A stretch of DNA of 64,000 nucleotides from a virus. The stretch spans positions 32,001 to 96,000 of the IMG/VR virus record IMGVR_UViG_3300036893_000013. One strand, given 5' to 3'. Below, in pieces: positions 12,149-54,444 of this stretch (position 1 is its first letter; each line of letters begins with the position of its first letter). The translations under genes and the position numbers were made by a program. The notes under the pieces were generated by a model, which was not told where the DNA came from, did no database searches, and worked only from the letters and a program-made list of their open reading frames with translations.

Positions 12149-12154
12149 AATTCC

Positions 12155-13616: not shown

Positions 13617-13622
13617 TTGGTC

Positions 13623-13988: not shown

Positions 13989-13989
13989 A

Positions 13990-14205: not shown

Positions 14206-14234
14206 TGGTGTCCTTTCTAAATAGGCCGCTGCTG

Positions 14235-14263
14235 ATCGTATTATTATTGGATTATCTTGTAAA
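14235..14263 (-). promoter_or_regulatory. Putative sigma70-type internal promoter
   Basis: TTTACA-17 nt-TACGAT in the 62-bp gap after the nozzle gene. Confidence 0.5.
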
Positions 14264-14267
14264 AGAC

Positions 14268-20884: not shown

Positions 20885-22309
20885 TTACTGTATTGTTGTG
20901 CCAGAATTATATACATCACCGGAGTTAAATGCACTAGCAGAGACACACCCGGGGGTTACAAGTCCGGTTGGTAAATTGGTGGAACATAGCCACTGCGGAT
21001 AGAGCGGATCATACCGACTAGTATTTGAGACTGTCTGATAGCCGTATGCTGCTGCTACAGAAGTTGGGGTAAAATTAGAAATTAGTGTAGCCATACACGC
21101 TACGGTACTCGCATACGAAGAACAAGATGGTGCTCCCGGAACTGTTGGATTACTAAACGAAACGGCTGTTCCGATGGTATTATTAGGACCATAAGCAAAT
21201 GATCCTGAAGTATAAATTATAGTATTGTTTCCACTTACTCCCGAAGCATATGTGCTGTACAAATGATCGGTCGCATTTCCGTTGCCGACAGCCATCGCGT
21301 AGATCGCATTACCACCAAGACCCGTAGCTGTCGATGTCTGGAGAAGGTTGTTCCAAGCCTGCACATTGTAAGCTGAATAAAGAAATAGTTCTCCAACATC
21401 TGTGCGATTTTGATGTGTATCCCGAAGATTACCCCAAGAGGTATTGTAAAGCATATACACATTACCTAGCGAAGAACCCACTGAATTATAAGGCACTTCA
21501 AGGCCGCTGCTGCCGTTCCCTACAGTAATATTGTTTTGTACAACGACTTGTTGAGAATATGGAGTACCACTCGACTGGGAATAATCTAATGAATCTACGA
21601 TAATTCCTTCTCCATCTGTTGAACCTCCTCCATTACAGGTGGCAGGATCATAGTTGGCATAAGAAAAATTACCCGCAATATAGATATGAGTGCCGGGACT
21701 GGTGTCTTTAGCAAGAGGTTGATAGACACTTATACCACTATAACAGGCAGTATTTCCCTGAGCAGCGTTATAAACTATATCCCCTACAATTGCAATGTAA
21801 TCTACCGAGTAGCTAGTACCGTCATTAAATGTGGAAAATCCACCTCCAATACAGCCGTTAGCTATATCGTCAACAAAGGCAACATCGTACACTTCTGAAG
21901 GTGTAGTTTGATTAGGGGAGGCCATAAAGCATCCTATGTATTGCTGAGGAGCAGAAGAACCCTGAACTTCCCACCCAGCAATCATCCAATGCGGCTTATC
22001 TACCCAGAAGTAGCCCGTAGAACCACTAATGATACAGGCATCAAAGGTGGTACATTTAAGAGTGGCAAAACAGTGGCCTGACCCAGTAACCGCGCCCCAT
22101 TCCCCTTGCCAGAAGTTCCACCCGCTATACGAAGAAGAAGCAGCGGCTGTGATTATATCACCACAATTAACGGCATGGTTTGGACTGAGCCAAGGTGTTC
22201 CGGTAGAGGTTCCGTTATTTGAGTCACTTCCCGACGGCGACAGATAGTAGTTTGTCGCAAAACAGGGAATGGCAAACAGAGATATAAATATTAGAAGATA
22301 TCTTATCAT
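20885..22309 (-). CDS. Secreted right-handed beta-helix (pectin-lyase-like) protein
   Basis: Start MIRYLLIFISLFAIPCFA|TNYYLSPSGSDSNNG...PW; TDGEGIIVD, NNITVGNG repeats; TAATG-coupled start at 22309. Confidence 0.75.
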   Translation of the reverse strand: MIRYLLIFISLFAIPCFATNYYLSPSGSDSNNGTSTGTPWLSPNHAVNCGDIITAAASSSYSGWNFWQGEWGAVTGSGHCFATLKCTTFDACIISGSTGYFWVDKPHWMIAGWEVQGSSAPQQYIGCFMASPNQTTPSEVYDVAFVDDIANGCIGGGFSTFNDGTSYSVDYIAIVGDIVYNAAQGNTACYSGISVYQPLAKDTSPGTHIYIAGNFSYANYDPATCNGGGSTDGEGIIVDSLDYSQSSGTPYSQQVVVQNNITVGNGSSGLEVPYNSVGSSLGNVYMLYNTSWGNLRDTHQNRTDVGELFLYSAYNVQAWNNLLQTSTATGLGGNAIYAMAVGNGNATDHLYSTYASGVSGNNTIIYTSGSFAYGPNNTIGTAVSFSNPTVPGAPSCSSYASTVACMATLISNFTPTSVAAAYGYQTVSNTSRYDPLYPQWLCSTNLPTGLVTPGCVSASAFNSGDVYNSGTTIQ

Positions 22310-24504
22310 TAGTTGTGCGCCATCATTCCAATCTGGTTGCCTGACCCCCACGATGCTGTTGGAATAGTGATTGTTGACGGTAGTTGCCCGTTTGTGGATG
22401 TTTGACTTACAGGCTGACTGGCATTATATGGGGTGAAACCTTTCCACTCTTCGTCAAGATTAAGAACAGTGGCATTTCCGGTTACCGCCATATAATAATA
22501 CTGACCGGCTGCTGGAGCAGTTAAAGTTACAGGGGAAGATTGGGTAATTGCCTGATCCCATTGACCAGTATGAGTTATGGCTACACCTTGAGAACCGGAA
22601 CCAATATCAGCAACTAGAGGGCAACTTGTTCCACCTAGAGCACAAGGACCATAAATACCTATGTCGTAGTAATGTCCAGAAGTAGTGTCATCAGTAGAAA
22701 CTTGGAAATCTAGATAAGAAATTTTCTGAGCGGTCGCTGGCCCGTTTACGATTACCCAAGTATAAACAGTTCCAGCAGTTCCTACTCCGAAACTTCCCTG
22801 ACTGGTTGAACCCATTGAAATGGGCCAGATAGAAGCAGAAGTGGAACTTCCGCTAGCACAGTTTGCCACATAAGCATCTGTTGCAATATCAGTGTTACTT
22901 GCACAAGATTGTGTCGGAGCGGTAGGAGTTCCTGTAAGAGCAGGAGAAGCAGCAAGTACAACGTTGCCAGTACCAGTACTTGATACATACCCAATTGCCG
23001 ACCATCCGCTAGATGGAGTACCTGCGGTCATGAACTGGGTTCCGGAAGGAGCAGTTGTACTCGGTTGCCATCCGTAAGCAGTAGCAGAAGTCGAGGAGAA
23101 TCCACCAATAGCGAAGTCGTGTGTAGGGATAGTTTGATTTGTAGTGTTACCACCTAAATACATCATACCGGCATCTCCAGAAGGGGGAGCAGAACCAATT
23201 GGTCCAGCGGAAGCTGTAATACCTCCGCTACCGGCGTATGTTAAGGTATTAGCAGTTGTTGCCCCATCATCGAGGTTAGAATCCCCACTAACCGTGCTAC
23301 CAGTTGACGAATACCATGTAATATGACCAGCATTTCCACTACTAACCGTGCCCCCGCCTCCCACAAAAGTACATGTGGATATTGCACTAGAAGGAGTTCC
23401 GCAGCTTAAAAGTGGTGTCGAATTGGTGGGTCCAGTAGCTGGTAGCTGGAGAGCATAAGCTGTAAAAGAAGCTGACGAGGGTCCCATAAATCCAGTGGTA
23501 TTCGAAGTAACGGCCTGATTTGCTGTATTGCCTATAAGAGAAATATATCCAGAATGCACACCGTCTGAAGTCGCTGAAACACCAGAACTAAAAGCCGCAG
23601 AAGTACCAGTAAGTGCTCCGGTTAAAGTGCCTCCTGTAAGAGGAAGATCGAGAGTGGCACTGTTAGCCACACACGAGGCGCAAGTACCAGTTAAGTTGGT
23701 AATTACTCCGGAAGCGGGAGTTCCTAACGCAGGAGTGATAAGGGTAAGATTGGTTGCACTCAATCCACTAGGAAGAGTTGTGCTTTCGGAGGGAACTCCG
23801 CTGCCGTTAGTACTTACAACTGCATTATTTACAGGAGTAACTCCAGCCAAAGCCGAAGTAGTACCTGCGCTATATACGATTGAATTAGTAGCTAAGTTAG
23901 CAAGAGTACCGAGATTTGCTGCTGTTGCTGCGGTTGGACCCGCACTTGTTGAATCAAATTGAAATCCGGAAATAGCCGATCCACCTACTTGAGATACTGT
24001 TCCTGTTTGTGTATACCACGTAACATCGTATTGGGGTTCAGCGGTTACTGTTCCTGATCCGGAAGGAGTTTGGCAAGCTCCATCTCCTCTGAGATACGTA
24101 GAGGAACTACAAGTTCCCGACCATAACCCATACACATCCGCTGCGACTGCTATAGAAGGTACACCGGTAGTTGTAGTATTTTTTAAAATACCTGTTCCAA
24201 GGCCGGACAGAAGGGTTCCGTTAATACCTTTTACAGTAGTAGCACCCCCTGTAGAAGTACTGACAGCATCGCCAGTAAGGGCATTGAAGGTACCACTTCC
24301 ACCAAAAGCTGTCCATGTGTTTGTTGCAGAACAGTAGTATGGAGATTCAATCCCACCAGAAAGCAGGTAGAAATTAATCACAGGACTACTAACCGAGCAA
24401 GTCGCGGGGAGACTAGAACCACTACCGTAACTTACAACTCCGCTTTGTGGTCCCGTCTGCGCGAGAGCGGGGAGTGCGAAAAATAAAAATAAGAGTTTTT
24501 TCAT
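22309..24504 (-). CDS. Signal-peptide-bearing tail-fibre-like protein
   Basis: MKKLLFLFFALPALA|Q; fibre motifs LTGDAV, LPLTGGTLTG, TPALGTP, SPALTGTPTAPT...IATDAYV. Confidence 0.7.
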   Translation of the reverse strand: MKKLLFLFFALPALAQTGPQSGVVSYGSGSSLPATCSVSSPVINFYLLSGGIESPYYCSATNTWTAFGGSGTFNALTGDAVSTSTGGATTVKGINGTLLSGLGTGILKNTTTTGVPSIAVAADVYGLWSGTCSSSTYLRGDGACQTPSGSGTVTAEPQYDVTWYTQTGTVSQVGGSAISGFQFDSTSAGPTAATAANLGTLANLATNSIVYSAGTTSALAGVTPVNNAVVSTNGSGVPSESTTLPSGLSATNLTLITPALGTPASGVITNLTGTCASCVANSATLDLPLTGGTLTGALTGTSAAFSSGVSATSDGVHSGYISLIGNTANQAVTSNTTGFMGPSSASFTAYALQLPATGPTNSTPLLSCGTPSSAISTCTFVGGGGTVSSGNAGHITWYSSTGSTVSGDSNLDDGATTANTLTYAGSGGITASAGPIGSAPPSGDAGMMYLGGNTTNQTIPTHDFAIGGFSSTSATAYGWQPSTTAPSGTQFMTAGTPSSGWSAIGYVSSTGTGNVVLAASPALTGTPTAPTQSCASNTDIATDAYVANCASGSSTSASIWPISMGSTSQGSFGVGTAGTVYTWVIVNGPATAQKISYLDFQVSTDDTTSGHYYDIGIYGPCALGGTSCPLVADIGSGSQGVAITHTGQWDQAITQSSPVTLTAPAAGQYYYMAVTGNATVLNLDEEWKGFTPYNASQPVSQTSTNGQLPSTITIPTASWGSGNQIGMMAHN

Positions 24505-24507
24505 ATT

Positions 24508-25617
24508 TTAGTATCCGTAGTAATAGCCGTAATTAAAGGGACTTGCAGGACCAACAGGATAGAACGGACCTAAAACAGAATCTCCGGACATTTGCGTATC
24601 GGGGAAAATACTCCATGCCTGTTCTTCCCTCTCTCCTGCTCTTATAGCTTGCTCAATTTGTTCATGCCACATCTGATTCTGCATAGCTGCGCGGGGGGAA
24701 TTAGCATGTTGAAGGCATTTAGCAACAAATCCTTCCCGGAAAAGATAAGCTAAATCATCTGGAACTGGAGAAATAGTCTGGTCTAAATACTTGAATCTAG
24801 GTGCTCTACGTTGGTAAACAATCCAAAATAACCAAGTAAATCCGCCTTCAGCAGGCAGAGGATTTACTCTTATAGCAAAGCCATTAGGATTAGCTACTGT
24901 CCAAGTAAGAGTACCGTCAGGTACCGTAGTACCCGGGGGCGAGGCGGGAGGAAGTTCCGGAGCAGTAGAACCCGAAGTTCCAAAATTAGCACCCGTACTG
25001 TTATAGGGATTAGGTGTCGGTAAAGGAATATTAGTCCCTTGATATCCTTGAACATTAGGAGTAAGGCCCATGATAGAAGTGTCTAGGAATAGCATGTTCC
25101 CATTAGCATCTACGATTTGTTGAATAGGAGTTTGCGGAGAACCAGAAGTACCATATCCGCAGTTGTATACTGTATTAGCAGTCCAAGTACCAAAATTACA
25201 CTGGTTATTAGGTATAAAGCATACTATACTGGGATTTCCCTGATAAGGAGTAAGTCCCATGTCTCTATTAGTTTCCATAAGAAACAGTGGTTTTGGACAG
25301 AGATTGCCTGTATTAGTGTTATTATTGATATCAATTCTAAATGCTGACGTTAGCCAGCCCACGTCAGTTAGATTAGTAATATAGTCTTGCTGTAGAGAAT
25401 TAGATAAGAATAAGGGAACATAAGACGCATTCCATCTCCAATTCAAACCTTGCGATAGAATTTTTTGAAGAACATCGTTAGCGAAGGTCAGCGCTGGTTC
25501 AAAAGTATAGCCACCCGCAGGAAGAATTGGATTACACTCAGAAAAACTTCTAGCATAATCAACTACTTCCTGTAGGGTTATAGAGCTAGGTGGAACTAGA
25601 TTTGGAAGAACAGGCAT
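24508..25617 (-). CDS. Head-tail adaptor/ring protein, paralog 1 (with inserted module)
   Basis: WRWN, QQDY, IRVNPLP, YQ..AP.F..LDQT.SP.PD; shares motifs with 35913-36647. Confidence 0.6.
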   Translation of the reverse strand: MPVLPNLVPPSSITLQEVVDYARSFSECNPILPAGGYTFEPALTFANDVLQKILSQGLNWRWNASYVPLFLSNSLQQDYITNLTDVGWLTSAFRIDINNNTNTGNLCPKPLFLMETNRDMGLTPYQGNPSIVCFIPNNQCNFGTWTANTVYNCGYGTSGSPQTPIQQIVDANGNMLFLDTSIMGLTPNVQGYQGTNIPLPTPNPYNSTGANFGTSGSTAPELPPASPPGTTVPDGTLTWTVANPNGFAIRVNPLPAEGGFTWLFWIVYQRRAPRFKYLDQTISPVPDDLAYLFREGFVAKCLQHANSPRAAMQNQMWHEQIEQAIRAGEREEQAWSIFPDTQMSGDSVLGPFYPVGPASPFNYGYYYGY

Positions 25618-25625
25618 GGGTTTCC

Positions 25626-26297
25626 TTAATTAATCACTGAACCTGTCAGGTTTTGTGGAGTGGGTGGAGTTGGTATAGAGGGGGCAGTAGCCACGACAAC
25701 TGAAAAGGTATTACTAGGGGCACTTTGCGTACCCGCCGCGTCAACTGAAACTACGTAGTAATCATATGTAGTCGAAGCATCGATTGTTTTATCAGTATAG
25801 GTTGTAGTTTGTATAGCTGTTGGTGTCAGTTGTATTGCTGACCCTCCAGCAACAGATCGAAATACAAGGTACCCAGTTACAGCCGGAGTGCTAGTAGTAG
25901 GAGCTTGCCATACGAGTGATACACCACAAGCCGGATTAGGATCAGTAGCACAGAACAGAGCGGGAGTTACTGGAGTTACTGGGGTTACTGGAGGCGTTGT
26001 TCCCGCAGCATTGACCGTCAGCGTCAATTTCGTCGTCGTATAAACACCAGCCGTGGGCGTGGCCTGCTGAACCTCGATATTATAGGTTCCTGCTGCCGTT
26101 GGAGTACCTGAAAGAATTCCAGTGGTGTTATCGTAACTTAATCCGTCTGCTGATATCTCCTGTATACCGTTAATTGTGACCAGATAACCGCCGTTTGAAA
26201 CAGGTGCCGCAATAGCCTGACTGAAAGGTACCCCTACAGTTGCGGTTGTGGTTTGAGCGTAAACAGTAGATGCCAGCAAAAATAGTATTAGTTTCAT
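25626..26297 (-). CDS. Secreted He_PIG/Ig-like plus fibronectin type III protein
   Basis: MKLILFLLASTVYA|Q; GLSYDNTTGILSGTPTAAGTY; VSLVW...GYLVFRS...TYDYYVVSVD...SAPSN. Confidence 0.8.
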   Translation of the reverse strand: MKLILFLLASTVYAQTTTATVGVPFSQAIAAPVSNGGYLVTINGIQEISADGLSYDNTTGILSGTPTAAGTYNIEVQQATPTAGVYTTTKLTLTVNAAGTTPPVTPVTPVTPALFCATDPNPACGVSLVWQAPTTSTPAVTGYLVFRSVAGGSAIQLTPTAIQTTTYTDKTIDASTTYDYYVVSVDAAGTQSAPSNTFSVVVATAPSIPTPPTPQNLTGSVIN

Positions 26298-29200
26298 TTT
26301 AATTGTACCTGTTTGGCGATTAAGTTCCCACTCAGTCCAATTGGTGGAGGAAGCGGTACTGAGCTAAAGTTAGCTGTAAACGTAGAAGCTTGATTTAAAG
26401 AGAATTGAGGACATGGATTTATTGTGCCTACGCAAACAGCACTACCTGATGCCCCGGACCACCCTGAAAAAGCATATCCCGGATTAGCCACTGGAGTGCA
26501 TGGTCCGATCAATGTACCAGAAACATAAGAAGCTGTAGCACAATTTGTACCTGTAATATATCCGTTCGAAGCTATGGTAGTCAGGGAAACTCCGCTAGTA
26601 ATTACCCATGTTCCACCTTCAACTGCTGAAGAAGTATATCCGGCTTGACATGCAATTACCCTCATCGTGGTTGTTGTTGAAAATGACTGTGCAGCATACG
26701 CAGGACTAGAACAGGTTGGTGCTGAGCCATCTAAAGTCATGAACATAGAGCAACCAGAAGTTGGAGAAGTCCAACTTACTGAAACAGGAGGAGTAGAGTA
26801 AGTGCCTGAATAGTTCGGTGGGTTTTGATAAGGATTCCCGCAAGTAGAAGTACCTCCCGTAAAAGTTGCAGTTACGGTGGTTGCAGTTGTCAAAACAAAC
26901 GAAGGACATGGATTTGTTGTTCCACTGCAAGCAGCATTGCCAGATACCGTCCATCCTGCAAAGGTTGATCCACCGGTGGCTGTTGCTGTCAAAGGACCTA
27001 TAGTTGTACCTGATGTATAAGAACCTGTTAAAGAATTTGTACCAGTAATTGTGCCTGTTCCAGACCCAGAAGTTGAAACAGTTAAACTTACTAATGTACT
27101 TCCTCCAATAAGTGGATGTGGATACTGGGCAGGAATATATGCAATAGTCCAAGTATTTGTAGAGGTACATTTGAACAACTCACCTTGTCCAAACCCATTG
27201 CCACTGCTATTCCAGTTCCCCTGATCTGTCGCCCAGTACCCTACGCCTGTAGTGCAGCTAGAGGGCCGATTCGCTAATGCACCAAACCCAACACCGCATG
27301 TGTAATTTCCGGACCCTGCGTTACAAGTTGTTGAACCATTAAATGGAACTGTTGTTGAAGTTTGTGCTGTTGGACCGGAGAGGCCCCCAGCCTTCCAATC
27401 GTCGGTGTAGAAATCACGATTTTGGATGGTCTGTCCAGCATAATTAGTCCCGAATTGTTGACCTAGAAATGAGGCGGGGGTAATGGTATCATCCCATTCA
27501 TAAGCAGGATCAAGCACTTCGTTCATCGGCGCGGTTGGAGTTGGTACTGCCGCTCCTGAAATATAAGCCCCTTGCCCTCTTCCCCACTGATCTTCGCAAA
27601 CCGTGGCCCGGATGATCTTATAAGTATCTCCGGGATTGTAAGAGGCCCCGTTGTTGATTTCGGCGTACATCGTCAGGGTGTTGTTAGTGTTGGATGTGAT
27701 CTGCGCACCGAAGCTTTGCGTTGTATCGTAGAAGAAATAAGGTGCGCCATAAGGTGCCCACTGATTAGTTGTCCAACTCTTCGACGTATCGGTAATCGTT
27801 GTTGTCCCGCCCCCAGTCAGCGTGCTTGAGACATAAGTCACATTGTCCACGGTATCGCCGGGATCGATTGAGGTCAATCCACCGCATGTTCCGAAAAAGG
27901 GGTTAGCTAGAGCAATACGGTAGGTCGTACCGTCCATGATCTGGTTAAAGTAAGCTCCACCTGAACTAATACCGGTATTACCAAATGCAATCCCTGTACC
28001 ACCCCTGAATGAGACAACAGCATCACCGCAATTTAAGGTACAAGTAAGCACATTTCCGTATGTTTCTGTATGTCTTCCAGACCTCGGTCTGCCAGTCGAA
28101 TCTGTTCCGTGAACGGCTGTATAAGCAAAAGCGTTGTAACCTATCGAATGATTAAAGCGATTTACGACTCGGCATCCACCACTTTGGTTAACTGTGATAC
28201 CAGCTTCGGTGCAATCATTGAATGTGGAACCATTTAAATTAACCTGATTATTTTCTGCAAACCAGTTAGTCAATCCGCCGAAACTATCTGGTTGTGCCCA
28301 TGAGTTATCGCCAAACTGTCCCACCCCGAGATAGGAGGACATCTGTGCGGTGTAAAGATGGTTTGAAAGACTACCTGTTGGGAGGGTGGAGTGATCTACA
28401 ACTCCAATGGCATCATCCACTCGGATCATGTCCACTGTGTTATCGCCGTTGCCGGATTCAGTCCACTGCGTTGAAATGCCAAAACCGATGTTATCAACAC
28501 GCACTTGAGGAAATCCGGCAGAAGTGGATGTTCCCTCGATAAATACCACTCCACCCAAACTCGTAGAACCGTTGATTGGGTCCAGATTCATACTCTCAAG
28601 TTTCGTTACATTACTAGTTCCATTATATGTAGGCTGAAGGAACCAGATAGGACCACTCGGATTGTTGGATTTTATCGTTAGAGTATTAGAACCTGATCCA
28701 AATGTTGATGTGCCTGTATTAGCACCTGCGTTTGGACCAGTAATATCAATTGAAGCTGTTACTACTACATCAGTTGTCCACGTACAGGTGCCCGCAGGAA
28801 TTGAAATAATATCTCCATTACAAGCAATATGGGCCGGTCCATTGATAGCTGAGTTGACATCGGATTGGTTGCAAGATGCAGCCGTGTAATTACCACATCC
28901 TGTAGAAGTACCGCTGGCACTGAGAGTTGCATTTGAACTTAGTGTGCAGGAAGCTGTCCCCGTTCCTGAAACCCCGCTACAAGACCCAGTACCAGACCAC
29001 CCAGAACTGAACGTATACCCAGCACTTGGCGTAAACGTGCATGGTCCAATAGAAGTTCCTGAAGCATATGTTCCAGTTGCACAATTAGCACCCGAAATTG
29101 TACCGTTGGTTGCGGTTACCACCAATGAATAATTAGTAGGTGTAGAGCCAGTACTTACAAAAGTAGTGATGCTTTGTGCAGGTATCGTGTAGGTGAATGA

Positions 29201-30511
29201 CTGACTTGAAACGGTTATATTTGCCAACTGCTGAATACTTTGAGTTGCAGAAGTAATGGTTGGCGTAAGAGTCGTGAACGTCGGGGCGTTCGTGATGTTG
29301 AAAACTTGGGAGAGCGAGGACCCGGTGTAGTTAGTCGCGATGATGACCAGTGTGTTTGAAGAAGTTTGTTGATACGCTGAAACTGTAACTCCGCTTTGCG
29401 GGTTGTGCGTAGCACTAATACGGTAGTAGCCGGGTCGAACGAATTTGCTGTACTGTGCTAATACGTAAGCCCTATCTGCAACCGCATATCCGCTTGCAGC
29501 ATTGGCTATAAGCGAGCCGTTGCTTGTTGTTCCTGCCCCTCCAGCCTGATTGAAGTCGATTAGCTGCCAGAAAAGCCACATGTTAGCTCCATCTTGCATC
29601 CGCTGATCGATGATCGCACCCCAACACAAACCGTCTGAAATCGTGGCGGTGAAGCTTGAATACGAACCGCACGCCGGACCATAGCTGGGACCTTGTGATG
29701 CTTCTGTTTCCCACCATTTCTTTCCGCTTGCCCAACCCGCAGGATAAGTGGCAGGACTTACTGGAGGTACTCCACCAGAAAGAAAAGCATCGTAATCGTG
29801 CCAATCTGCGACTCCAAGATAAGTCGTGCAGGAGGGGTCTGTACCGCAAGTTCCACCACTCGATGATACCGCACTGTACTGGTAAGAAGTGGGCATGAGG
29901 ATTAGTGCCGGGATGCTTTGGGAAGCGAAGGTCGGTCCTAGATTAGTTTTGATAAAAGTATCGATGTTTCCCGAAGACCATAAGGCACTGTCATACGTCT
30001 CGCATTCTTCAGGCTCGTTTTGGACTCCCATTCCGTATAACTGAATACCATAGTAGGTCGAGAGGCTTTTGTAGAAGTTTGCGCCCCAGATTGCGTAGTC
30101 GCCGTAATGTCCAGATGCAAGTGCTCCTGAACCGGGATTACATATTGTGCTGTTATTGGTGGTATATATGGCGGGCGGGGACCAAGGATGAGAGATAATT
30201 CTCACGTTTTGAGATGCAGCGTACTGCAAGTCGGCAATTACAGATCCAGCGCATCCAGAATTAACAGTCGTACAACTTTGGCCGGGACCATCCTGATGGC
30301 CATTAGTCTGCCCTATCCGCAAAACTGACAAACCGAGTTGCCCTGTTCCATTTCCGAAGAAAAATTGCTGGTGTGCATTAGACATGGAAGTAGTCCAGCC
30401 TTCGTTCGAACCACCGAAGCCATCGATTATCTGGGCTGGGGCAGTCCAGTTGATGGTGGCCTGTCCAGCAAGCGAGAGCGGAAAGAGCAGCAGAAGTATA
30501 AGTCTTTTCAT
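26294..30511 (-). CDS. Secreted multidomain glycosidase: GH30 (glucuronoxylanase-like) + InlB-B-like repeats + beta-helix-like domain + Fn3-associated domain
   Basis: Start MKRLILLLLFPLSLAG|Q at 30511; QIIDGFGGS, LGLSVLRI, PWSPPA, QNEPE (acid/base), WWETE (nucleophile), QYSKFVRPG; PGYAFSGWSG...FTANF repeats. Confidence 0.85.
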   Translation of the reverse strand: MKRLILLLLFPLSLAGQATINWTAPAQIIDGFGGSNEGWTTSMSNAHQQFFFGNGTGQLGLSVLRIGQTNGHQDGPGQSCTTVNSGCAGSVIADLQYAASQNVRIISHPWSPPAIYTTNNSTICNPGSGALASGHYGDYAIWGANFYKSLSTYYGIQLYGMGVQNEPEECETYDSALWSSGNIDTFIKTNLGPTFASQSIPALILMPTSYQYSAVSSSGGTCGTDPSCTTYLGVADWHDYDAFLSGGVPPVSPATYPAGWASGKKWWETEASQGPSYGPACGSYSSFTATISDGLCWGAIIDQRMQDGANMWLFWQLIDFNQAGGAGTTSNGSLIANAASGYAVADRAYVLAQYSKFVRPGYYRISATHNPQSGVTVSAYQQTSSNTLVIIATNYTGSSLSQVFNITNAPTFTTLTPTITSATQSIQQLANITVSSQSFTYTIPAQSITTFVSTGSTPTNYSLVVTATNGTISGANCATGTYASGTSIGPCTFTPSAGYTFSSGWSGTGSCSGVSGTGTASCTLSSNATLSASGTSTGCGNYTAASCNQSDVNSAINGPAHIACNGDIISIPAGTCTWTTDVVVTASIDITGPNAGANTGTSTFGSGSNTLTIKSNNPSGPIWFLQPTYNGTSNVTKLESMNLDPINGSTSLGGVVFIEGTSTSAGFPQVRVDNIGFGISTQWTESGNGDNTVDMIRVDDAIGVVDHSTLPTGSLSNHLYTAQMSSYLGVGQFGDNSWAQPDSFGGLTNWFAENNQVNLNGSTFNDCTEAGITVNQSGGCRVVNRFNHSIGYNAFAYTAVHGTDSTGRPRSGRHTETYGNVLTCTLNCGDAVVSFRGGTGIAFGNTGISSGGAYFNQIMDGTTYRIALANPFFGTCGGLTSIDPGDTVDNVTYVSSTLTGGGTTTITDTSKSWTTNQWAPYGAPYFFYDTTQSFGAQITSNTNNTLTMYAEINNGASYNPGDTYKIIRATVCEDQWGRGQGAYISGAAVPTPTAPMNEVLDPAYEWDDTITPASFLGQQFGTNYAGQTIQNRDFYTDDWKAGGLSGPTAQTSTTVPFNGSTTCNAGSGNYTCGVGFGALANRPSSCTTGVGYWATDQGNWNSSGNGFGQGELFKCTSTNTWTIAYIPAQYPHPLIGGSTLVSLTVSTSGSGTGTITGTNSLTGSYTSGTTIGPLTATATGGSTFAGWTVSGNAACSGTTNPCPSFVLTTATTVTATFTGGTSTCGNPYQNPPNYSGTYSTPPVSVSWTSPTSGCSMFMTLDGSAPTCSSPAYAAQSFSTTTTMRVIACQAGYTSSAVEGGTWVITSGVSLTTIASNGYITGTNCATASYVSGTLIGPCTPVANPGYAFSGWSGASGSAVCVGTINPCPQFSLNQASTFTANFSSVPLPPPIGLSGNLIAKQVQLK

Positions 30512-32541
30512 TATTGTAAAGCCACACTCACGTTGATGAAATTTTCCGTGGTCCCAGTCGTCCATGTTGGGGTATAGAGTCCCGCTGATGCCTGCGTATA
30601 ATGACCTCCCGCTTGGGTGGCTCCTGCCGAATTGGTTGCGTTTATATCGAACGAAAAAGGAGATGGAGCACTAAGAGCTACCCCAGCCCCTATTCCAATG
30701 AACGTGAGGACTAGAGAATTTGCTGCGGTAGTAGTAAGGGAAGAACCTGTACAACTGGACGAGCAGGAGGCCGTGCCGTAACTGGACAGCACGATCCCTG
30801 TTGTCGTGGCATTTGATATCTGTTCTAAGACTCCACCCATCCCAGCATAAGAAGTTGAGGTTCCTGATACTGTGACCGTACAAGAACCGGTGACATTTGC
30901 AACCCCTGTCCAGATTGACTGGCCCGAGGACCCGGTGGTTGGTGAACCCTGTGCAGTCCAAGTGGGTACACAACCTGAAGGCGTGTTCCATGCTGTAACG
31001 TTAATTCCAAGACCCCAAAGTACCAGCGTATTTCCAGTCGTGATTGATAATGTGACCGTGCTAGACGGATTTACACTGTAGGCTCCTACCACACCAGCAG
31101 CAGATACAAAAGTCGGATTACCGCCCCCTCCACCTGATCCTCCACCAAGCACAATCCAAGTTCCGGAAGACCCATTACAAGCAACGAAAGCAAAATTTGA
31201 TCCGCCACTAACATAAGTAGCACCAGAAATAGCGGATGTTGAATCTGTAACTGTTGCGGTGGGCCAAGGTTGAGACATGCTACTGCTACAAGTAGGAATA
31301 GGATTTGATGAGGCATTGCCAGCGGTGTATGATATGACACCGGGACCTGTACCAGCTATAACTACAGGAACATGGGCAGTCAGATCACCACTGTTGGTAA
31401 TATTGTAATCGAAGGGTAGATATGAAGTGGCTGTTGTAGCTGTAGCCGCCATAACTCCATACCCGGCAATTTGGCCGGTAATAGAACCTGCGGGAGTACA
31501 CCACGTACCGTTACCACACCAGACAGTTGAACCAGAGGCTCCGGTTCCCCCATTAAAATTAGCTATTTGTAGATTTCCTGTAACTCCACCAGCACCCGTC
31601 CCAGCTAGGTTAATTGCGGGAATAACCGAGGAGTTCAACAATCCACTTGAAAGCTGTGGAATGTCTGAGCCTGAATTACCGACAGTATAACTTGTTCCCC
31701 ACCCAGAACCAGTTGAGTTTGCAAGTCCGGCCCCGGGGTAGGTTGAAGAGGCGCAAGAAGAACAAGAAATACTAATACCTAAAGCAGTGGTGGTAATAGA
31801 AAGGGGAGAGTTGGCAGTAATATTTGTGCCTATATAGCTACCCAGATCATATAGTTGAGGAGCTATTAGACTTCCGGTAGGTTCTTCTCCTAGAAAATAA
31901 GCATGTCCAGTAGTGGTCTGGCCCGATACATAGGATGTAGTGTTAGCGCTGGACTGATAAGGAATAGAGCCTAAACTACCCCCAGCTAGTCCTCCGGCAT
32001 ATCCAGTGGTATTAGCACCATTGTTAGGGATATCTCCTGAAACTAAAGCTCCATAATTAGGAACACCGGCAGACCCAGTATGATTTCCCCATATATAATG
32101 AGCAGAAGTACTACCTAAAGAGAGGGTAACTCCTCCGACAGAATCATTATTAGTGTAAAAACTTCCATCGCCGGAAACCGAACTAACTCCGGAACCAGAA
32201 CCCCCTCCAGTATTACCAATCTGAACAATGGTATTGTTGCATTGACTATATGAAGAACAAACTTTCTCAACCACTCTTGTTCCGGTCTGAACGTAGTAAC
32301 TATATACTCCGAATGCATTAGCAGGAAAAGGTTGAGTTAAAGGAGCGGTAAGTGCCTGATCAGAATAAACTGTTTGCGGTGTAGAACATTGTGCCAGCGA
32401 ATTATATGTACAAACTGATATCTGAGCATTTGGGATAATAGTAGCATAGTTACCGCCAGATTTGGTTATAGCAGTATTCCATCTCTGGGCAGACTGGCCT
32501 AGAAGCATGGTAGGAAATAATAGCAGCAATAAGTATTTCAT
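30511..32541 (-). CDS. Signal-peptide-bearing tail fibre/spike-like protein A
   Basis: MKYLLLLLFPTMLLG|Q; tailspike-like particle-binding domain VYSDQALTAPLTQPFPANAFGVYSYYV; G/S/T-rich shaft motifs. Confidence 0.7.
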   Translation of the reverse strand: MKYLLLLLFPTMLLGQSAQRWNTAITKSGGNYATIIPNAQISVCTYNSLAQCSTPQTVYSDQALTAPLTQPFPANAFGVYSYYVQTGTRVVEKVCSSYSQCNNTIVQIGNTGGGSGSGVSSVSGDGSFYTNNDSVGGVTLSLGSTSAHYIWGNHTGSAGVPNYGALVSGDIPNNGANTTGYAGGLAGGSLGSIPYQSSANTTSYVSGQTTTGHAYFLGEEPTGSLIAPQLYDLGSYIGTNITANSPLSITTTALGISISCSSCASSTYPGAGLANSTGSGWGTSYTVGNSGSDIPQLSSGLLNSSVIPAINLAGTGAGGVTGNLQIANFNGGTGASGSTVWCGNGTWCTPAGSITGQIAGYGVMAATATTATSYLPFDYNITNSGDLTAHVPVVIAGTGPGVISYTAGNASSNPIPTCSSSMSQPWPTATVTDSTSAISGATYVSGGSNFAFVACNGSSGTWIVLGGGSGGGGGNPTFVSAAGVVGAYSVNPSSTVTLSITTGNTLVLWGLGINVTAWNTPSGCVPTWTAQGSPTTGSSGQSIWTGVANVTGSCTVTVSGTSTSYAGMGGVLEQISNATTTGIVLSSYGTASCSSSCTGSSLTTTAANSLVLTFIGIGAGVALSAPSPFSFDINATNSAGATQAGGHYTQASAGLYTPTWTTGTTENFINVSVALQ

Positions 32542-34346
32542 TAGTTTCCTAGATACTCCAGCTTATAGTGAACATCGTAACTTATGGTTCCGCTGGCCGT
32601 TACTAACGGAGTAATAGTAGTATTTACGGCTGCGTAGAAGACGGCACTGTACTGGTCCCACGCAGGAGCACTGGACCAGATATCGTTCCAAGTAAAGGTG
32701 TTGCCCGAAGTATGGGCATTTTGATAAGTAACTGTTAAAGTAGTATGGGGCGAACTAGTTTCACTAACCGCATTTACATAATATGTAAACCGATACATAC
32801 CTGCTACGGGGGTGGCGTAGCCGGAGGGAGCATAAGTAGTTGTCTGAGCGGTAGCAGATAAAGATTGCACTATAGAAGAACTTGTGTATTGACTTATTGG
32901 AAAACCAACATAACTGCTGCCGTTCCAATAACATAGATTTATTTGATTTGAGAAGGTTCCACCACCAACACTGCAATCAGTTGGAGTTTGACCGTCTGAT
33001 ACGAAACTTACCGATTGGTAAGCTGATCCCGGATTTGGTAGTCCCGCTATGTTTGTAATATAATTTAGGTTCGGCCAGTTAGGACTTATACCTAATGTAT
33101 TTAGTGTAGAATTGTAATATAATGGGGGTTGAACTAGTAAATTTGAACTGCTTGGGGGAGCAGTTCCTGTATAATGAACTTCAAGACCCATTAGGGGAAT
33201 ATATATACTGCCCTGTCCATTACAGCAGCGGGAGGCATTCATTTGAATAGCTGAATAGTTTGTAGGTAGGGCACTAAAAGCAACAGAAACTTGCCCCAAC
33301 GGATAGTCTAGAGCAGGCTGTGAAGCTCCATTAACTCCTTGAAGCATAGAAGCTCCACCGGGGATGGTTCCGCCACCAGCACTATTTACCCACATACCCT
33401 CGAATTCGGAGTTTGCCATGCTAGAGGCTGATATCATAAAAGCATATACAGCCGTTATGTTAGATTGAGTAACATAAGAAGGTAATGTAAAATTCGATAC
33501 CGTAATACCAGAACTCCCTGTACCGTCTACAAGTCCTCCAAAATATTGTCCAGCAGCATTCTGATAGCAAATAGGATTCGCACCTATACCAGTGTTGGTA
33601 ATTGTACAACTTGTTCCAAATACTAGCACGTACTGGCCTGTACCTTGTGGTACATATTGGGTAGCTAAGTTGGAAGCTGCTACATATGCACTTAAATCTC
33701 CTCCACTATCGCTTTGGAAAGTTACAGCTACATTTCCTGTTGGAGGGGTTGGGGTAGTATCATTAAAGTTCAGCAGGACTTGATCTGTAAGATTGGTTCC
33801 ATTATGCTGTAAAACAAGTTGTTTAGCGCACCCGGAAGTAGTAGCTCCTCCTAAAGAATCTATACAGAGAAGAGAACCAGAAGAACCTATAGTCCCAGAT
33901 GAGAGTAGTTTACTGTCAGTTCCTTGAACACTATAGCTACTTCCCCAAGCTGTACCTGTAGAAACGGGAACTCCCGCTGGGGGATAGACCATACTTCCAT
34001 TTCCGGTATTGCCTATATAAACATCGTAAAAACTACATTGATTATATGGCGCACATACTTGCTCAACTACATGAGTTCCGCCATCGACATAATAGCTATA
34101 TACCCCTACTCCATTTGCAGTAAGAGGTTGAGTAATTCCTTGGGTCAAAGCCGGGTCAGAATATATAGAAATTTGACTTATACAATTAAGAGAAGAGTTC
34201 CATTCACAAACTGTAATTTCTGCGTTGGGAATAACAGTAGAAAAATTACTGCCTGAAGCAGGTACCGTTGCTGTACTCCATCTCTGGGCAGACTGACAAA
34301 TTCCGGAAAGTGGAAAAAGTAGAAACAACAGCAAAAGCTTATTCAT
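32541..34346 (-). CDS. Signal-peptide-bearing tail fibre/spike-like protein B
   Basis: MNKLLLLFLLFPLSGIC|Q; same N-terminal domain as 30511-32541 (IYSDPALTQGITQPLTANGVGVYSYYV), different C-terminus. Confidence 0.7.
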   Translation of the reverse strand: MNKLLLLFLLFPLSGICQSAQRWSTATVPASGSNFSTVIPNAEITVCEWNSSLNCISQISIYSDPALTQGITQPLTANGVGVYSYYVDGGTHVVEQVCAPYNQCSFYDVYIGNTGNGSMVYPPAGVPVSTGTAWGSSYSVQGTDSKLLSSGTIGSSGSLLCIDSLGGATTSGCAKQLVLQHNGTNLTDQVLLNFNDTTPTPPTGNVAVTFQSDSGGDLSAYVAASNLATQYVPQGTGQYVLVFGTSCTITNTGIGANPICYQNAAGQYFGGLVDGTGSSGITVSNFTLPSYVTQSNITAVYAFMISASSMANSEFEGMWVNSAGGGTIPGGASMLQGVNGASQPALDYPLGQVSVAFSALPTNYSAIQMNASRCCNGQGSIYIPLMGLEVHYTGTAPPSSSNLLVQPPLYYNSTLNTLGISPNWPNLNYITNIAGLPNPGSAYQSVSFVSDGQTPTDCSVGGGTFSNQINLCYWNGSSYVGFPISQYTSSSIVQSLSATAQTTTYAPSGYATPVAGMYRFTYYVNAVSETSSPHTTLTVTYQNAHTSGNTFTWNDIWSSAPAWDQYSAVFYAAVNTTITPLVTASGTISYDVHYKLEYLGN

Positions 34347-34638
34347 TCTTTTTACCCTTAAGGATGTTTAATATATCAGTAATACTGCCCGATGCCCTGT
34401 TAACTCCATAAGGAGCAGTAAAGAAAAGAACCAGCGCAGAAATTATTAAAGGAATTGCCGCTAACCATGAGTTGAGTATAACCACATCCGTGATTTTTAT
34501 TATGTGATCAAATACTTCTATAAGGATATAAGATGAAACTATAGCAAGAATTGTACTTAGGACACGACTACTCGATCCATTTCCGTTATCTGAATACACA
34601 GATTGGAAAAAAGCACAGAATTTACTTAGAAAGTTCAT
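34339..34638 (-). CDS. Holin-like two-TM membrane protein
   Basis: SSSRV followed by two hydrophobic helices, basic C-terminus. Confidence 0.55.
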   Translation of the reverse strand: MNFLSKFCAFFQSVYSDNGNGSSSRVLSTILAIVSSYILIEVFDHIIKITDVVILNSWLAAIPLIISALVLFFTAPYGVNRASGSITDILNILKGKKNE

Positions 34639-34646
34639 AAATTTCC

Positions 34647-35912
34647 TTACGGTAGCGTGACTGTTTGCGCGGGAATGGTAACTGTAATGGGACTTCCGCT
34701 CGTCTGAATTGTCAGTGTTTGGGCTGGAATACTTAAACTGGCGGGTAGGGTTACTGGAATGTTGATCGTGTAGGACACTATCGAGGTTGATGATTCGGTG
34801 TCGCCGGGTGCCGTTGCATAAGCTGCGATGCTTTCGTTCTGACCTACTGTAAGCGGCTTGGTATAGATCGTCTCTGCTGCGCCGTTGACACTGTAATAGA
34901 TGGTTGCGCCGGGAGTTGTGTCCGAAATAGTGACTGTTTGTGCCAAAGTGTAAGTGCCCGGTCCCGGTAAAAAAGTCGGTGTATCAACCGTTGGTGCAGG
35001 GGCTGCAACAGAACCCGTTGTATAACTGAATTGACGGATGACAAGAGGGGTAACGGCTCCGTAAGGAGTATCCGAAGTGCCTGCTGTTAATCCGGCATAA
35101 GCTGTACTTCCACCTACCAACGAAGGAATGTTTACGTTGGACCAAGTGTACGTAAAACATCCAGACCCGGGGCACGATCCACCAGCACTTACATCGTAGA
35201 GATTAAGCGTTACATTTGAGCCGTCGTAGCTAATAGTTGCTGAATAGGTGTCCCCTGTACTTGTATCACTTGAGGATACAGGAGAATTCAAAGAAACAGG
35301 AGCGGTGCTGATTTTGCTTAGAGCGTAATCAGTAGAGACTGGAGCGGGGATACACGGCGATTGATTACTTGAGTAGATTTGTGTGCTACTGTGACTAAAC
35401 ACAAAAGGATACGGAGCACTTGCTGATAGGGTGCTGGCAGAGTCTAGTTCAAGAGCAAATACATTATTTGGCTCTGGGTTAGGTGGTGTTTCCTGATATC
35501 CGAATGCCTGATAAAATCCCGCTTCGCATCCTGCTCCAGCCGTGAAGGTTCCACCCTCTGCTGAATTTGTACCCGGCTGATTATTCGTGTTATTCAGAAG
35601 AAAAGCCACGTTAGCCCCATCTGGAATAAACTCAAAGCTGGCAACGAAATTGTTGACAGGTAGGGGTTTCTGGTATATAAGTGAAGTCGATCCATGACCA
35701 GACGGCAGTCCAACCATAGTCAAAGCTGATCCAGATATACCTGAATTGTTCTGTGGTGAATTTAGATAGAAGGGAAAGTTTCCAAACCCACCTTGTACAC
35801 TAACAGCACAAACTGCTGCGGGGACTGTATTAAAGCCAGAACAATTAAACCCGGTCTGACCATACACATACACAGGAAGAGATAGTATAAAAAGTAGTAT
35901 AAAATTTTTCAT
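34647..35912 (-). CDS. Secreted legume-lectin-like protein with Fn3-associated domain (paralog of 19667-20884)
   Basis: MKNFILLFILSLPVYVYG|Q; shared AGAGCE.GFYQAF, PEPNNVFALELD, TGDTYSAT..YDGSN; TPTFLPGPGTYTLAQTVTISDTTPGATIYY. Confidence 0.78.
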   Translation of the reverse strand: MKNFILLFILSLPVYVYGQTGFNCSGFNTVPAAVCAVSVQGGFGNFPFYLNSPQNNSGISGSALTMVGLPSGHGSTSLIYQKPLPVNNFVASFEFIPDGANVAFLLNNTNNQPGTNSAEGGTFTAGAGCEAGFYQAFGYQETPPNPEPNNVFALELDSASTLSASAPYPFVFSHSSTQIYSSNQSPCIPAPVSTDYALSKISTAPVSLNSPVSSSDTSTGDTYSATISYDGSNVTLNLYDVSAGGSCPGSGCFTYTWSNVNIPSLVGGSTAYAGLTAGTSDTPYGAVTPLVIRQFSYTTGSVAAPAPTVDTPTFLPGPGTYTLAQTVTISDTTPGATIYYSVNGAAETIYTKPLTVGQNESIAAYATAPGDTESSTSIVSYTINIPVTLPASLSIPAQTLTIQTSGSPITVTIPAQTVTLP

Positions 35913-36647
35913 TTAGCTTCCGCTACGACCTTGACGACCAATTGCTCCGGTCTGGGACACAGATTGTGTTTCTCGTTGATAAATCAAATGTGGAAATAGA
36001 AAGATATTTTTCTGAGTTTCAGAAAGTCCTTCAGAGGCAGCAATAACTTGTTTAAGAAACTCCTGATGAGCAAAGGCAAATCTTTCATCGCCTTTATATT
36101 CATATGTTTTGGCTAAGTAGCCTTGGTTATATATATAAGAATAATAATCGGGAATGGGCGACCAAGTATCAAAAACAGTACCGAAAGTTGGAGACGATTG
36201 TTGATATAAGATATTTAGAACATAGGCTTTATCAGGTACAGGCATCAATCTGAAAGTAATATTGCCGTTGTTATCGTCAAATACTGGTGAGATATAGGCA
36301 GGTTGTCCTAACCTAGTTTCACCGACTAACGCCATGTTAACTTCAAGCTCTTTGGAATAAAGGACTTGGTTGCCATCGGTATTAGGAGGAAATACTATGG
36401 TAGCTTTTTCAATCCAGCCAAAATTAGATACAGTAACTTGATAGTCAGAAGTACCCGGTTCACAAACTATAGGAGGTACTGCTGCTCTATTCCAACGCCA
36501 AGCGAAGGGGGGAGCTAACATAAATTGACGTACCCAATCGCCTATTGAATACGCCAATGCCCCACTATTCACGTAGAGTAGAGGGGCATTATAGATAAAC
36601 CGAGAAGTAATATCTATCGTTGTTTTTAACTGGATCGAGGATGACAT
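35913..36647 (-). CDS. Head-tail adaptor/ring protein, paralog 2
   Basis: AWRWNR, GTSDY, FRLMPVPDKAY.L...YQ, WSPIPD. Confidence 0.65.
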   Translation of the reverse strand: MSSSIQLKTTIDITSRFIYNAPLLYVNSGALAYSIGDWVRQFMLAPPFAWRWNRAAVPPIVCEPGTSDYQVTVSNFGWIEKATIVFPPNTDGNQVLYSKELEVNMALVGETRLGQPAYISPVFDDNNGNITFRLMPVPDKAYVLNILYQQSSPTFGTVFDTWSPIPDYYSYIYNQGYLAKTYEYKGDERFAFAHQEFLKQVIAASEGLSETQKNIFLFPHLIYQRETQSVSQTGAIGRQGRSGS

Positions 36648-39159: not shown

Positions 39160-39774
39160 TTAACTAACGCTAGCTGCGCTTTCATCGTGCTCTAGCGGCT
39201 TGAATATTCTTTCTGCTGTAATATTACCGTGACCGTCAAAGCCTATAGCTACAACGCCACCGGGCTTTACAACTAAACTTTTGTGATCCCCTGTCAATTG
39301 TGTTCCGACTTCATGTATAACGCTGCTATGAGCAACCACGAATCCCGGTCCTATTTTTGCCGCGTGTTCAAAACATTCAGCTAGAACAGGTAGAATTCTG
39401 TCTTTGAATTCGTTGAGGCTTTCGCCTTCTGGAACCGATTCGTCGGGGTTATTAATATATTTCTCTAACTCTTTTAGGTTTTCTTCGTTCTTAGGTTGAC
39501 CAGAAAACTTTCCTAGATTCCACGCTCTTAGTTGATCTGTGTCTGTAGGTTCTATGTCTGTTCCTTTGGCTAAAATATTTGCCGTTTGGGTGGCCCTTTT
39601 TTTGTCTGAAGAAACAATGAAGGAGGGTTTGACCTCTTCGAGAAATTTTTTAATTTCCTCTGCGTCTTTAAATCCCTCTTCTACTAAAGGAATATTAGCC
39701 TCACCACGAAAAAGTCCTTTTTGGTTGTACAAAGTTTTTCCGTGACGTATGAGATATATGACTGGAGTAAGCAT
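39160..39774 (-). CDS. Histidine phosphatase (phosphoglycerate-mutase-like) family protein
   Basis: YLIRHGKT, SSDKKRA.QTA, PEGES, VVAHS. Confidence 0.92.
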   Translation of the reverse strand: MLTPVIYLIRHGKTLYNQKGLFRGEANIPLVEEGFKDAEEIKKFLEEVKPSFIVSSDKKRATQTANILAKGTDIEPTDTDQLRAWNLGKFSGQPKNEENLKELEKYINNPDESVPEGESLNEFKDRILPVLAECFEHAAKIGPGFVVAHSSVIHEVGTQLTGDHKSLVVKPGGVVAIGFDGHGNITAERIFKPLEHDESAASVS

Positions 39775-40641: not shown

Positions 40642-41631
40642 TTAGCTTGAGCTTGTGTTGGACAAGATTTTACGGAGGCGCATCACACTACCCGGAGGAG
40701 GTGTAATAGTGAATTTCACATTATAGGAAATCCAGCCACCGATAAGTCTTGCAGGGTCTGACACCGAACCACCTTCAGGGGCCATCTGGATGTTCATACT
40801 GTAGTTCTTCTTATTTTTATCAGCCGGATTAGGACCCAAGAAGATACTGAGCAGAGCATCGTCGGCAAAGATGTACGTTGGATAGAACAAGTTGCCTGAA
40901 ATGGTTGTAGGAGATGCTGTAGTGGTTTCCTTAAACTTAACGCCAGCGAATTCAAAAGGTGCATCGCGGTCAACAGCCGAGAAAAGCTTCTTCTGAGTAT
41001 CACTCTGACGCTTCATAATATCGGTCAAACCGTTGAAGCTAGCATCGTTATACACGTCATGGGTGACGAGAGGATTGATGATACCCGCGTAGGTATCGCC
41101 CTCGAAGAACCGGACGTTGATGCTCGACAACTGTTGAGCGACAGTACGAATGTTAGAAGCGGTAAGAAAGGTACCGGTTGCAAGGGTCTGAAGAACCGTG
41201 CTATCAACACCTGTAGTGGAGTCAGCCGCAGTAGACACAAGCAGGTTAAGGGTGAGTGCCAAGCGATAGTTCATTTCCTCAGCAAGGCTGGACAGAAGAC
41301 CCTTATCATCAAGAGCGGTATCCATCAACAGATCAGAACTGTTAGTGTAGTCAGCATACTGACCAATAACAGCCTGAATCTTGACTGCGCTTTCAGGAAC
41401 CGGCGAACCAACAAAACCTTCAGTTGATTGCTGGATATTAGAACCCAAAAGGTTATAGGAGAAGAACTGTATAGTGTTACCACTATGCATGGGAAGCGGC
41501 CACTGTTTAGTGCAGCCCAAGAAGGGGGTTGACTGCTTCAAGTTAGGAATTGCTTTACGCTCGTAATAGATAGCTAGAGCGTTAGGAAAGTTGCCGGAAG
41601 CAACCGTATTTACTGCTGGTGAATAGGCCAT
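40642..41631 (-). CDS. Major capsid protein (N4-gp56-like, HK97 fold)
   Basis: 329 aa after the scaffold; LPMHSGNTIQF, TEG, QYADY, YAGIINP...D, FAGVKF.ET, DP...GG.ISY; biased codon usage. Confidence 0.85.
   Translation of the reverse strand: MAYSPAVNTVASGNFPNALAIYYERKAIPNLKQSTPFLGCTKQWPLPMHSGNTIQFFSYNLLGSNIQQSTEGFVGSPVPESAVKIQAVIGQYADYTNSSDLLMDTALDDKGLLSSLAEEMNYRLALTLNLLVSTAADSTTGVDSTVLQTLATGTFLTASNIRTVAQQLSSINVRFFEGDTYAGIINPLVTHDVYNDASFNGLTDIMKRQSDTQKKLFSAVDRDAPFEFAGVKFKETTTASPTTISGNLFYPTYIFADDALLSIFLGPNPADKNKKNYSMNIQMAPEGGSVSDPARLIGGWISYNVKFTITPPPGSVMRLRKILSNTSSS

Positions 41632-54443: not shown

Positions 54444-54444
<1 letters not shown>
54046..54444 (-). CDS. SprT-like zinc metalloprotease domain protein
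   Basis: N..YF.NSL, TILHEQIH (HExxH), HGKPF. Confidence 0.8.

Follow-up and report, generated by a model that had tools for sequence, protein, structure and literature searches.

A leader- and cysteine-bearing variant of the tailspike docking domain heads two tandem paralogs in the tail operon of a podophage-like virus

The head-binding domains of podophage tail spikes (P22 gp9 residues 1-108, Sf6 gp14N, Pam1 7eeq_A and Pan3 9vyg) are N-terminal beta-sandwiches of ~100 residues that precede a variable spike body, and in cyanophage A4 such domains dock at the junction of adaptor and nozzle (PMC12002296). Here we describe a variant of this domain in p601 and p676, two proteins encoded in tandem within a window of 64,000 nucleotides (bases 32001-96000) of the 112,037-bp virus record IMGVR_UViG_3300036893_000013, which represents an uncultured soil phage and whose completeness is estimated at ~98% by CheckV. 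The p601/p676 domain likewise stands ahead of a variable body and shares with the podophage domains the motif Y-[ST]-x-x-A-L-T...P..A[DN]..G. Unlike them, it lies behind a cleavable-looking Sec leader, starts with Gln and carries a Cys-x7-Cys loop, often accompanied by a second Cys pair. The tailspike of Serratia phage MTx and the tail spike of Escherichia phage ECO1230-10, the latter a match in the BFVD collection of predicted viral structures, have a homologous N-domain at their extreme N-termini, but in contrast to p601 and p676 they have neither leader nor cysteines, and their hosts are enterobacterial.

Leaders ahead of fibre-like proteins are also present in cultured podoviruses. In Tunturi_1/2, which infect Acidobacteriota, gp12 consists of a leader, Gln at position +1 and then a distant version of the p601/p676 N-domain. 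The Tunturi_1 gp12 N-terminus aligned to our family with an hhalign probability of 95% (leader included) and a HMMER domain E-value of 2.4e-4, and it also aligns to leaderless enterobacterial tailspikes. Leader-like N-termini were found in Tunturi_1 gp12, gp13, gp14, gp16 and gp17, which are located behind the tail protein gp11, and Gln adjoins the predicted cut in four of the five. Compared with p601 and p676, gp12 is very divergent in sequence and belongs to a different phage lineage (63 kb); the published description of the Tunturi phages mentions neither signal peptides nor virion proteomics. Tunturiibacter phage Tunturi_3, a further cultured podovirus of Acidobacteriota, is the reference for most of the tail genes discussed below. 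In Cellulophaga phage phi18:3 (Pachyviridae), gp085-087 are likewise leader-bearing, fibre-like proteins with Gln at +1 in a cultured podovirus, and their GenBank notes read 'structural protein, annotation based on experimental MS/MS proteomics analysis'. Their N-module, leader included, occurs ahead of different bodies in different phages. They differ from p601 and p676 in having an unrelated N-domain (no hidden Markov model match), few cysteines and a Bacteroidota host.

Shared N-modules with exchanged bodies are known from two other settings. The first 102 residues of Cellulophaga phage phi46:3 gp080 (L043 6980-7285), comprising a leader and an N-module, are 91% identical in phi13:2, phi19:1 and phi19:3, and the remainder does not align; this is the arrangement seen in the p601/p676 family, but the family itself is unrelated. 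The MAT fibres of Bdellovibrio combine a signal peptide, a conserved, beta-rich N-terminal anchor domain of ~130 residues and mosaic phage-like fibre tips (Caulton et al. 2024, PMC10769870). In contrast to p601 and p676, these fibres are cellular and are displayed by the predator on its surface; no PDB homolog is reported for their N-domain (PMC10769870). The likeness to p601 and p676 is one of architecture.

The two proteins are divided as follows (positions are those of the window).

30511-32541, minus strand: p676, 676 residues
32497-32541, minus strand: p676 leader, residues 1-15, MKYLLLLLFPTMLLG, with n/h/c layout and a predicted cut before Q16
32206-32496, minus strand: p676 N-domain, residues 16 to ~112, a predicted tailspike head-binding-like beta-sandwich with Cys pairs
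30511-32205, minus strand: p676 body, residues ~113-676, rich in G, S and T and unrelated to that of p601
32541-34346, minus strand: p601, 601 residues
34296-34346, minus strand: p601 leader, residues 1-17, cut predicted by homology before Q18, alternatively after G15
34002-34295, minus strand: p601 N-domain, residues 18 to ~115, paralog of the p676 domain
32541-34001, minus strand: p601 body, containing a Tunturi_3 gp18-like stretch and a beta-sandwich module

A first-pass annotation, made from the letters of the window, had described both reading frames as a signal peptide followed directly by a shared domain and then by divergent sequence. BLASTP bears this out: a single significant segment joins the proteins (residues 16-115 of p676 and 18-118 of p601, 58/101 identical or 57%, E 1e-30), the leaders end just before its Gln, and no similarity was detected outside it. 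Each element of the reported pattern (QSAQRW, IPNA, VC...C, YSD.ALT, TQP..AN..GVYSYYV and VVE.VC..Y.QC) is present in both proteins. No third copy of the N-domain was found in the 112-kb genome.

AlphaFold2, run on an alignment of 57 family sequences, predicted the N-domain to be a seven-strand beta-sandwich with a predicted local distance difference test score (pLDDT) of 89.9. The top Foldseek matches in the PDB were the Pam1 tail machine, the Pan3 tail complex and the P22 and Sf6 tailspike N-domains, all at weak E-values. With a Foldseek-independent aligner (VIA), Pam1 7eeq_A scored Z 8.6 (88 aligned, root-mean-square deviation (rmsd) 4.5), followed by the P22 head-binding domain 2vnl (Z 7.8), P22 gp9N in situ (Z 7.7) and Sf6 gp14N (Z 7.4). 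Since sandwiches of generic transthyretin-, CnaB- or carboxypeptidase-regulatory-like type also score Z 6-8, the PDB fold result is not decisive on its own. Among the predicted viral structures of BFVD there were 11 matches at E<=1e-3, the best with a template modelling score of 0.79 and an rmsd of 2.1 Å over 97 residues. All of the named ones are tail spikes, pectate-lyase-type spikes, exopolysaccharide (EPS) depolymerases, 'P22 tailspike N-terminal' proteins or fibre proteins.

Profile comparisons gave the same answer. In a PDB profile search two entries alone came out on top, annotated as 'tail spike protein' in Pan3 (E 0.003) and as 'tailspike head-binding domain' in Pam1 (E 0.03-0.17); both align on the motif YSD.ALT..QP..AD..G.Y. 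The family profile matched the leaderless N-terminus of the MTx tailspike with an hhalign probability of 86% (E 4.6e-6, 27% identity over 63 columns). Other searches returned little: none of 21 family members matched Pfam Head_binding (PF09008) with the cut-off relaxed to E<=1, a tblastn search of cultured phages with the N-domain as query yielded just a weak match to a Delftia phage, and a word-indexed homolog search returned the query protein alone. Judged by its profiles and its predicted model, the N-domain is a member of the broad fold class of tailspike N-terminal, particle-binding domains. The likeness to virion-attachment domains of spikes and fibres noted in the first-pass annotation is thereby upheld, with podophage head-binding domains as the best fold matches and the profiles agreeing on the very motif that had been flagged.

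The same data bear on the idea that p601 and p676 are captured host surface-protein genes, carried as lysogenic-conversion cargo and merely resembling the tailspike sandwich. Carboxypeptidase-regulatory, CnaB and pilin domains, which have this generic prealbumin-like fold too, match at Z 6-7, and Pfam CarboxypepD_reg (PF13620) matches two distant members of the 21 at 8e-6, with a relative from genome G015 at 0.0013, below the cut-off; neither the p601 nor the p676 domain matches it. Nevertheless, we regard capture as very improbable. Tailspike N-domains are the best matches by every method, so that the similarity is not confined to cellular surface proteins, and close relatives are recorded on contigs of phage size, the largest being 75-118 kb. 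The domain is present in only 2/301 sampled Acidobacteriota genomes, and one of these two copies lies in a podophage-like region, with a weak terminase match and neighbours that look, by size and order, like capsid, adaptor and nozzle. As described below, there is also no sign of an independent transcription unit.

We then considered the family as a whole, using a two-domain profile against 1.84 billion proteins. At E<=1e-3 it comprises at least 276 representative clusters, in which the N-domain almost always occupies residues ~20-120 of proteins that range from 106 to 2584 residues in length; one type of N-domain carries hundreds of different bodies. A Pfam-recognisable domain was present in the bodies of only two of 38 long relatives, several bodies match PHROG tail-fibre, tail-protein or pectin-lyase families, and the G015 relative carries a pectate-lyase-type beta-helix. 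Exchange can also be seen from the side of the body: five leader-bearing proteins (P0165-P0169) contain a counterpart of the p601 middle (residues ~225-520; 34-64% identity) behind at least three different N-termini. These comparisons support the proposal of a common domain with swappable ends.

The bodies of p601 and p676 are themselves less readily classified. Neither full-length protein has a Pfam or PHROG match. Look-alikes of the p676 body in the ESM Atlas score 0.77 and their nearest clusters are mostly viral; as scores for both bodies fall below the threshold of 0.9, these matches serve as leads only. In p601, BLASTP linked residues 175-221 to the N-terminus of the Tunturi_3 fibre gp18 (E 6.5e-4). 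The full-length p601 model has an overall pLDDT of 60 and is confident only for the N-domain (87-97) and for a sandwich module at ~230-400, with leader residues 2-9 predicted to be helical. Foldseek matches of that module to CBM22/SGBP domains (E 2e-5) come from a low-confidence model, and we treat them as a lead because the model is poor outside the N-domain and this one module.

Leaders were called with a crude rule-based scan that requires a basic n-region, an uncharged hydrophobic h-region and small residues at -3/-1, and ignores the +1 residue. Those of p601 and p676 are both basic at first, then Leu-rich, and end in small residues just before Gln. The scan accepted p601, p676 and six further tail-block proteins, and it accepted 132 out of 150 relatives; in these 132 the +1 residue is most often Gln (71). 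The 'two added Cys pairs' of the first-pass annotation are both present in p601 and p676, but only the first holds for the family at large. The Cys-x7-Cys loop is near-invariant (147/148 and 140/147 family members), whereas the second pair is complete in 59 members (~40%) and absent from ~80, with a single Cys just once. Taken together, leader starts that are coupled to upstream stops, the conservation of the leader, the co-occurrence of the paired cysteines and an MTx homolog devoid of leader and cysteines argue, as far as sequence can, for true export and disulfide formation. p601 and p676 would accordingly be exported and cleaved.

The alternative most directly addressed by these observations is that p601 and p676 are ordinary cytoplasmic tail spikes, in which the hydrophobic N-terminus is retained as a structural or membrane-tethering helix or is bypassed by an internal start. 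This would agree with textbook assembly, and p676 does have an in-frame Met at residue 12, just ahead of the domain. We consider it unlikely. The p601 leader contains no internal Met, it is the leader-start ATGs that are coupled to the preceding stops, and a full n/h/c leader is kept in 132/150 relatives, with Gln at +1 in 71/132. Cys pairs that strictly co-vary are hard to explain in a reducing cytoplasm, and leaderless homologs lack the cysteines as well.

The genomic setting of p601 and p676 is a single long minus-strand late operon that occupies most of the window. Genes identified in the window around the two paralogs are listed here.

46317-48281, minus strand: terminase, in the late operon
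43154-45247, minus strand: portal, Pfam SU10_portal 8.6e-27, 36% identity to the Tunturi_3 portal
40642-41631, minus strand: major capsid protein, in the late operon
35913-36647, minus strand: tail adaptor of the SU10_adaptor family, Pfam PF24175 8.7e-07, BLASTP 5.9e-39 to Tunturi_3 gp13
34647-35912, minus strand: leader-bearing protein of 421 residues with a CHB_HEX_C_1 domain, the first gene behind the adaptor
34339-34638, minus strand: protein of 99 residues with two hydrophobic segments and a KGKKNE tail, among the leader-bearing genes
26294-30511, minus strand: leader-bearing GH30-type protein of ~1405 residues, Pfam GH30, CHB_HEX_C_1 and Flg_new_2
24508-25617, minus strand: second adaptor-like tail protein, Tunturi_3 gp12 homolog, BLASTP 7.1e-54
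19667-24504, minus strand: three further leader-bearing genes (731, ~473 and 405 residues), from the second adaptor to the nozzle
14268-19667, minus strand: nozzle-like tail protein of 1799 residues, Tunturi_3 gp19 homolog, BLASTP 1.6e-166 and 1.5e-52 for its two ends
13623-13988, minus strand: protein of 121 residues, equal to the N-terminal domain of Tunturi_3 fibres gp15/gp14 (BLASTP 5.2e-18), with no distal part

The p601 and p676 genes sit between the two adaptor genes, and eight proteins encoded between adaptor and nozzle (19667-35912) bear leaders: p601, p676 and those of 421, ~1405 (GH30), 223 (fn3), 731, ~473 and 405 residues. Gln adjoins the predicted cut in seven of the eight. The syntenic block of Tunturi_3 has no leader-bearing gene. 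Junctions within the tail block are tight, with TAATG at 32541, 30511, 22309 and 19667, ATGA at 26297 and an 8-nt overlap at 34346. Two open reading frames were called too long at their 5' ends: the GH30 gene, called from 30565, has a likelier start at 30511, where the ATG of the leader overlaps the stop of p676 (TAATG), and the frame of 488 residues has a likelier start at the ATG at 22309, giving ~473. The genes for p601 and p676 are translationally coupled within the adaptor-to-nozzle operon. Consensus scans around them found promoter- and terminator-like sites no more often than expected from shuffled sequence, and in place of the separate promoter and terminator and the separability from structural genes that mark a moron, overlaps of 1-8 nt join them to their neighbours. 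A 115-kb viral contig has the same layout, with an adaptor, two tandem paralogs with leader and N-domain, a second adaptor and a nozzle.

From the homology, the exchange of bodies and the operon we conclude, on firm support, that the shared module is a leader- and cysteine-bearing variant of the tailspike docking domain, which serves as the common N-terminus of exchangeable bodies and is expressed with the tail genes. What the proteins do with it is a separate matter. The reading we favour, though tentatively and at somewhat less than an even chance, is that p601 and p676 are spikes or fibres that are exported first and become attached to the tail at lysis or afterwards. As paralogous spikes or fibres they would belong to the tail of a Tunturi_3/SU10-like podophage; their mature N-terminus would form a disulfide-stabilised head-binding (tail-docking) domain, and their bodies would provide different glycan- or receptor-binding modules. 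Synthesis would occur late, together with adaptor and nozzle, and would be followed by Sec export, cleavage by signal peptidase I before Gln, and folding and oxidation in the periplasm. The common N-domain would then dock at the adaptor/nozzle junction of particles built in the cytoplasm, only once the inner membrane is breached in lysis or later in the lysate; the adaptor at 35913-36647 is a candidate docking partner. Such late docking is biochemically plausible, since P22 tailspikes attach in vitro to spikeless heads, a classical result. The leader-bearing gp085-087 of phi18:3, detected as structural proteins, count as a precedent for the presence of leader-bearing proteins in virions.

The main rival agrees on export and places the proteins elsewhere. 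Here p601 and p676 would be tailspike-derived proteins that never enter the virion and act in the envelope of the infected or lysogenic cell, where they bind or cut surface glycans; proposed roles are the freeing of progeny, the destruction or masking of receptors against superinfection, and surface fibres, with the N-domain used for trimerisation or envelope anchoring. A leader and conserved disulfides are what an extracytoplasmic life would call for. The adjoining leader-bearing genes resemble ordinary secreted bacterial enzymes (GH30, CHB_HEX_C_1, InlB B-repeat), the phage has an integrase, and a lone copy of the domain occurs in a chromosomal island with recombinases and no related portal. 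The exported bacterial tailspike-like protein WceF (6tgf) is among the Foldseek fold matches, and the MAT fibres of Bdellovibrio offer a cellular precedent for the architecture (PMC10769870). The N-domain is nevertheless the most conserved part of these proteins, and the domain to which it is homologous has tail docking as its sole known function. The genes are translationally coupled within the operon from adaptor to nozzle and do not have the make-up of morons, and the domain is rare in cellular genomes (2/301). Furthermore, apart from the 121-residue stub, no leaderless spike or fibre is obvious in this phage. On balance we hold this rival to be doubtful, although far from negligible.

Several observations weigh against late-docking spikes and have to be set beside those that favour them. 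Particles of tailed phages assemble in the cytoplasm. The scores against solved structures (Z 7-8.6) are poorly separated from those of the generic sandwiches mentioned above. One of the two Acidobacteriota copies is a lone gene of 1593 residues in a chromosomal island flanked by a resolvase and an integrase (positions 9944-14725 of locus L011, from the Acidobacteriaceae metagenome-assembled genome (MAG) CAVVBW010000006.1), and no related portal gene was found in that MAG. In another lineage (IMG/VR contigs L007/L008/L006/L010), a gene of 1523 residues with leader and N-domain lies between the portal region and a scaffold-like gene. The phage carries an integrase, and the proteins may be expressed from a prophage. 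Finally, we found no published case of exported tail fibres and no paper on leaders on tail fibres; the nearest is a remark on signal peptides following the Q-rule in Porphyromonas phage genes of unknown function (PMC10367356). The first-pass annotation saw in the domain the most direct argument for virion parts as opposed to cargo. We infer the same, and go no further than that, because the lone chromosomal copy comes without a related portal and because leader and disulfides conflict with cytoplasmic assembly.

Two features of these contexts deserve separate mention. In the island, the 1593-residue gene has a host-like G+C content of 55%, and the island also encodes a Laminin_G_3 protein and large, mostly unannotated open reading frames. 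In the L007/L008/L006/L010 lineage a small leader-bearing gene accompanies the 1523-residue gene, and the location of the pair is the head module and not the tail module.

The host of the phage is probably a member of the Acidobacteriota, given where members of the N-domain family occur; the G+C content of the phage, 44%, is low for that phylum. Gln at +1 is the Q-rule of Bacteroidetes signal peptides, described in an analysis that did not extend to Acidobacteria (PMC5837995). In an Acidobacteriaceae MAG, Gln at +1 is likewise enriched, with 25/99 crude leaders in a rough count on 400 kb of sampled sequence, and for that reason we do not take this residue to point to Bacteroidota as the host.

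The combination of a recognisable tail-docking domain with an acquired export leader and disulfides either adds an extracytoplasmic step to tail assembly or shows spike genes turned into secreted proteins that act on the envelope. It suggests that the host-recognition proteins p601 and p676 fold outside the cytoplasm, the compartment in which particles are built, an arrangement described in no paper that we found. A broader proposal, which we advance with still more reserve than the favoured reading for p601 and p676, is that a clade of Acidobacteriota tailed phages (and, with other domains, phages of Bacteroidota) exports its spikes or fibres through Sec, folds them with disulfides in the periplasm and attaches them to the tail by the head-binding domain only at lysis. 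These findings bear on the annotation of host-range modules in soil viromes, on the expression of spikes for study, which would call for the periplasm or oxidising conditions, and on the ways in which Acidobacteriota phages deal with thick extracellular polysaccharide. Tunturi_1/2 provide cultured examples of the layout.

Other features of the tail block and the genome were noted in passing. The nozzle-like protein is longer than Tunturi_3 gp19 (1799 vs 1136 residues) and aligns well only at its ends, and the ~660 extra residues in the middle could be a receptor-binding or enzymatic insert. Neither the 121-residue protein nor Tunturi_3 gp15 is detectably related to the p601/p676 N-domain. The 99-residue protein has no Pfam or PHROG match; its topology is holin-like, with a charged C-terminal tail, and a similar protein of 106 residues comes after the adaptor in the viral contig L002. 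A match to the tyrosine integrase family above the Pfam cut-off, at 10576-11064 of the full record and outside the window, is the reason for thinking that the phage may be temperate. A suspected terminal repeat of the contig was left unconfirmed at 250/615 identity. Among the head genes, 39160-39774 on the minus strand encodes a histidine phosphatase (His_Phos_1, 1.4e-33). Two small leader-bearing proteins are encoded outside the tail block, at 54444-54803 and 54842-55273 on the minus strand, and the mature part of one of them opens with a Thr-Pro repeat.

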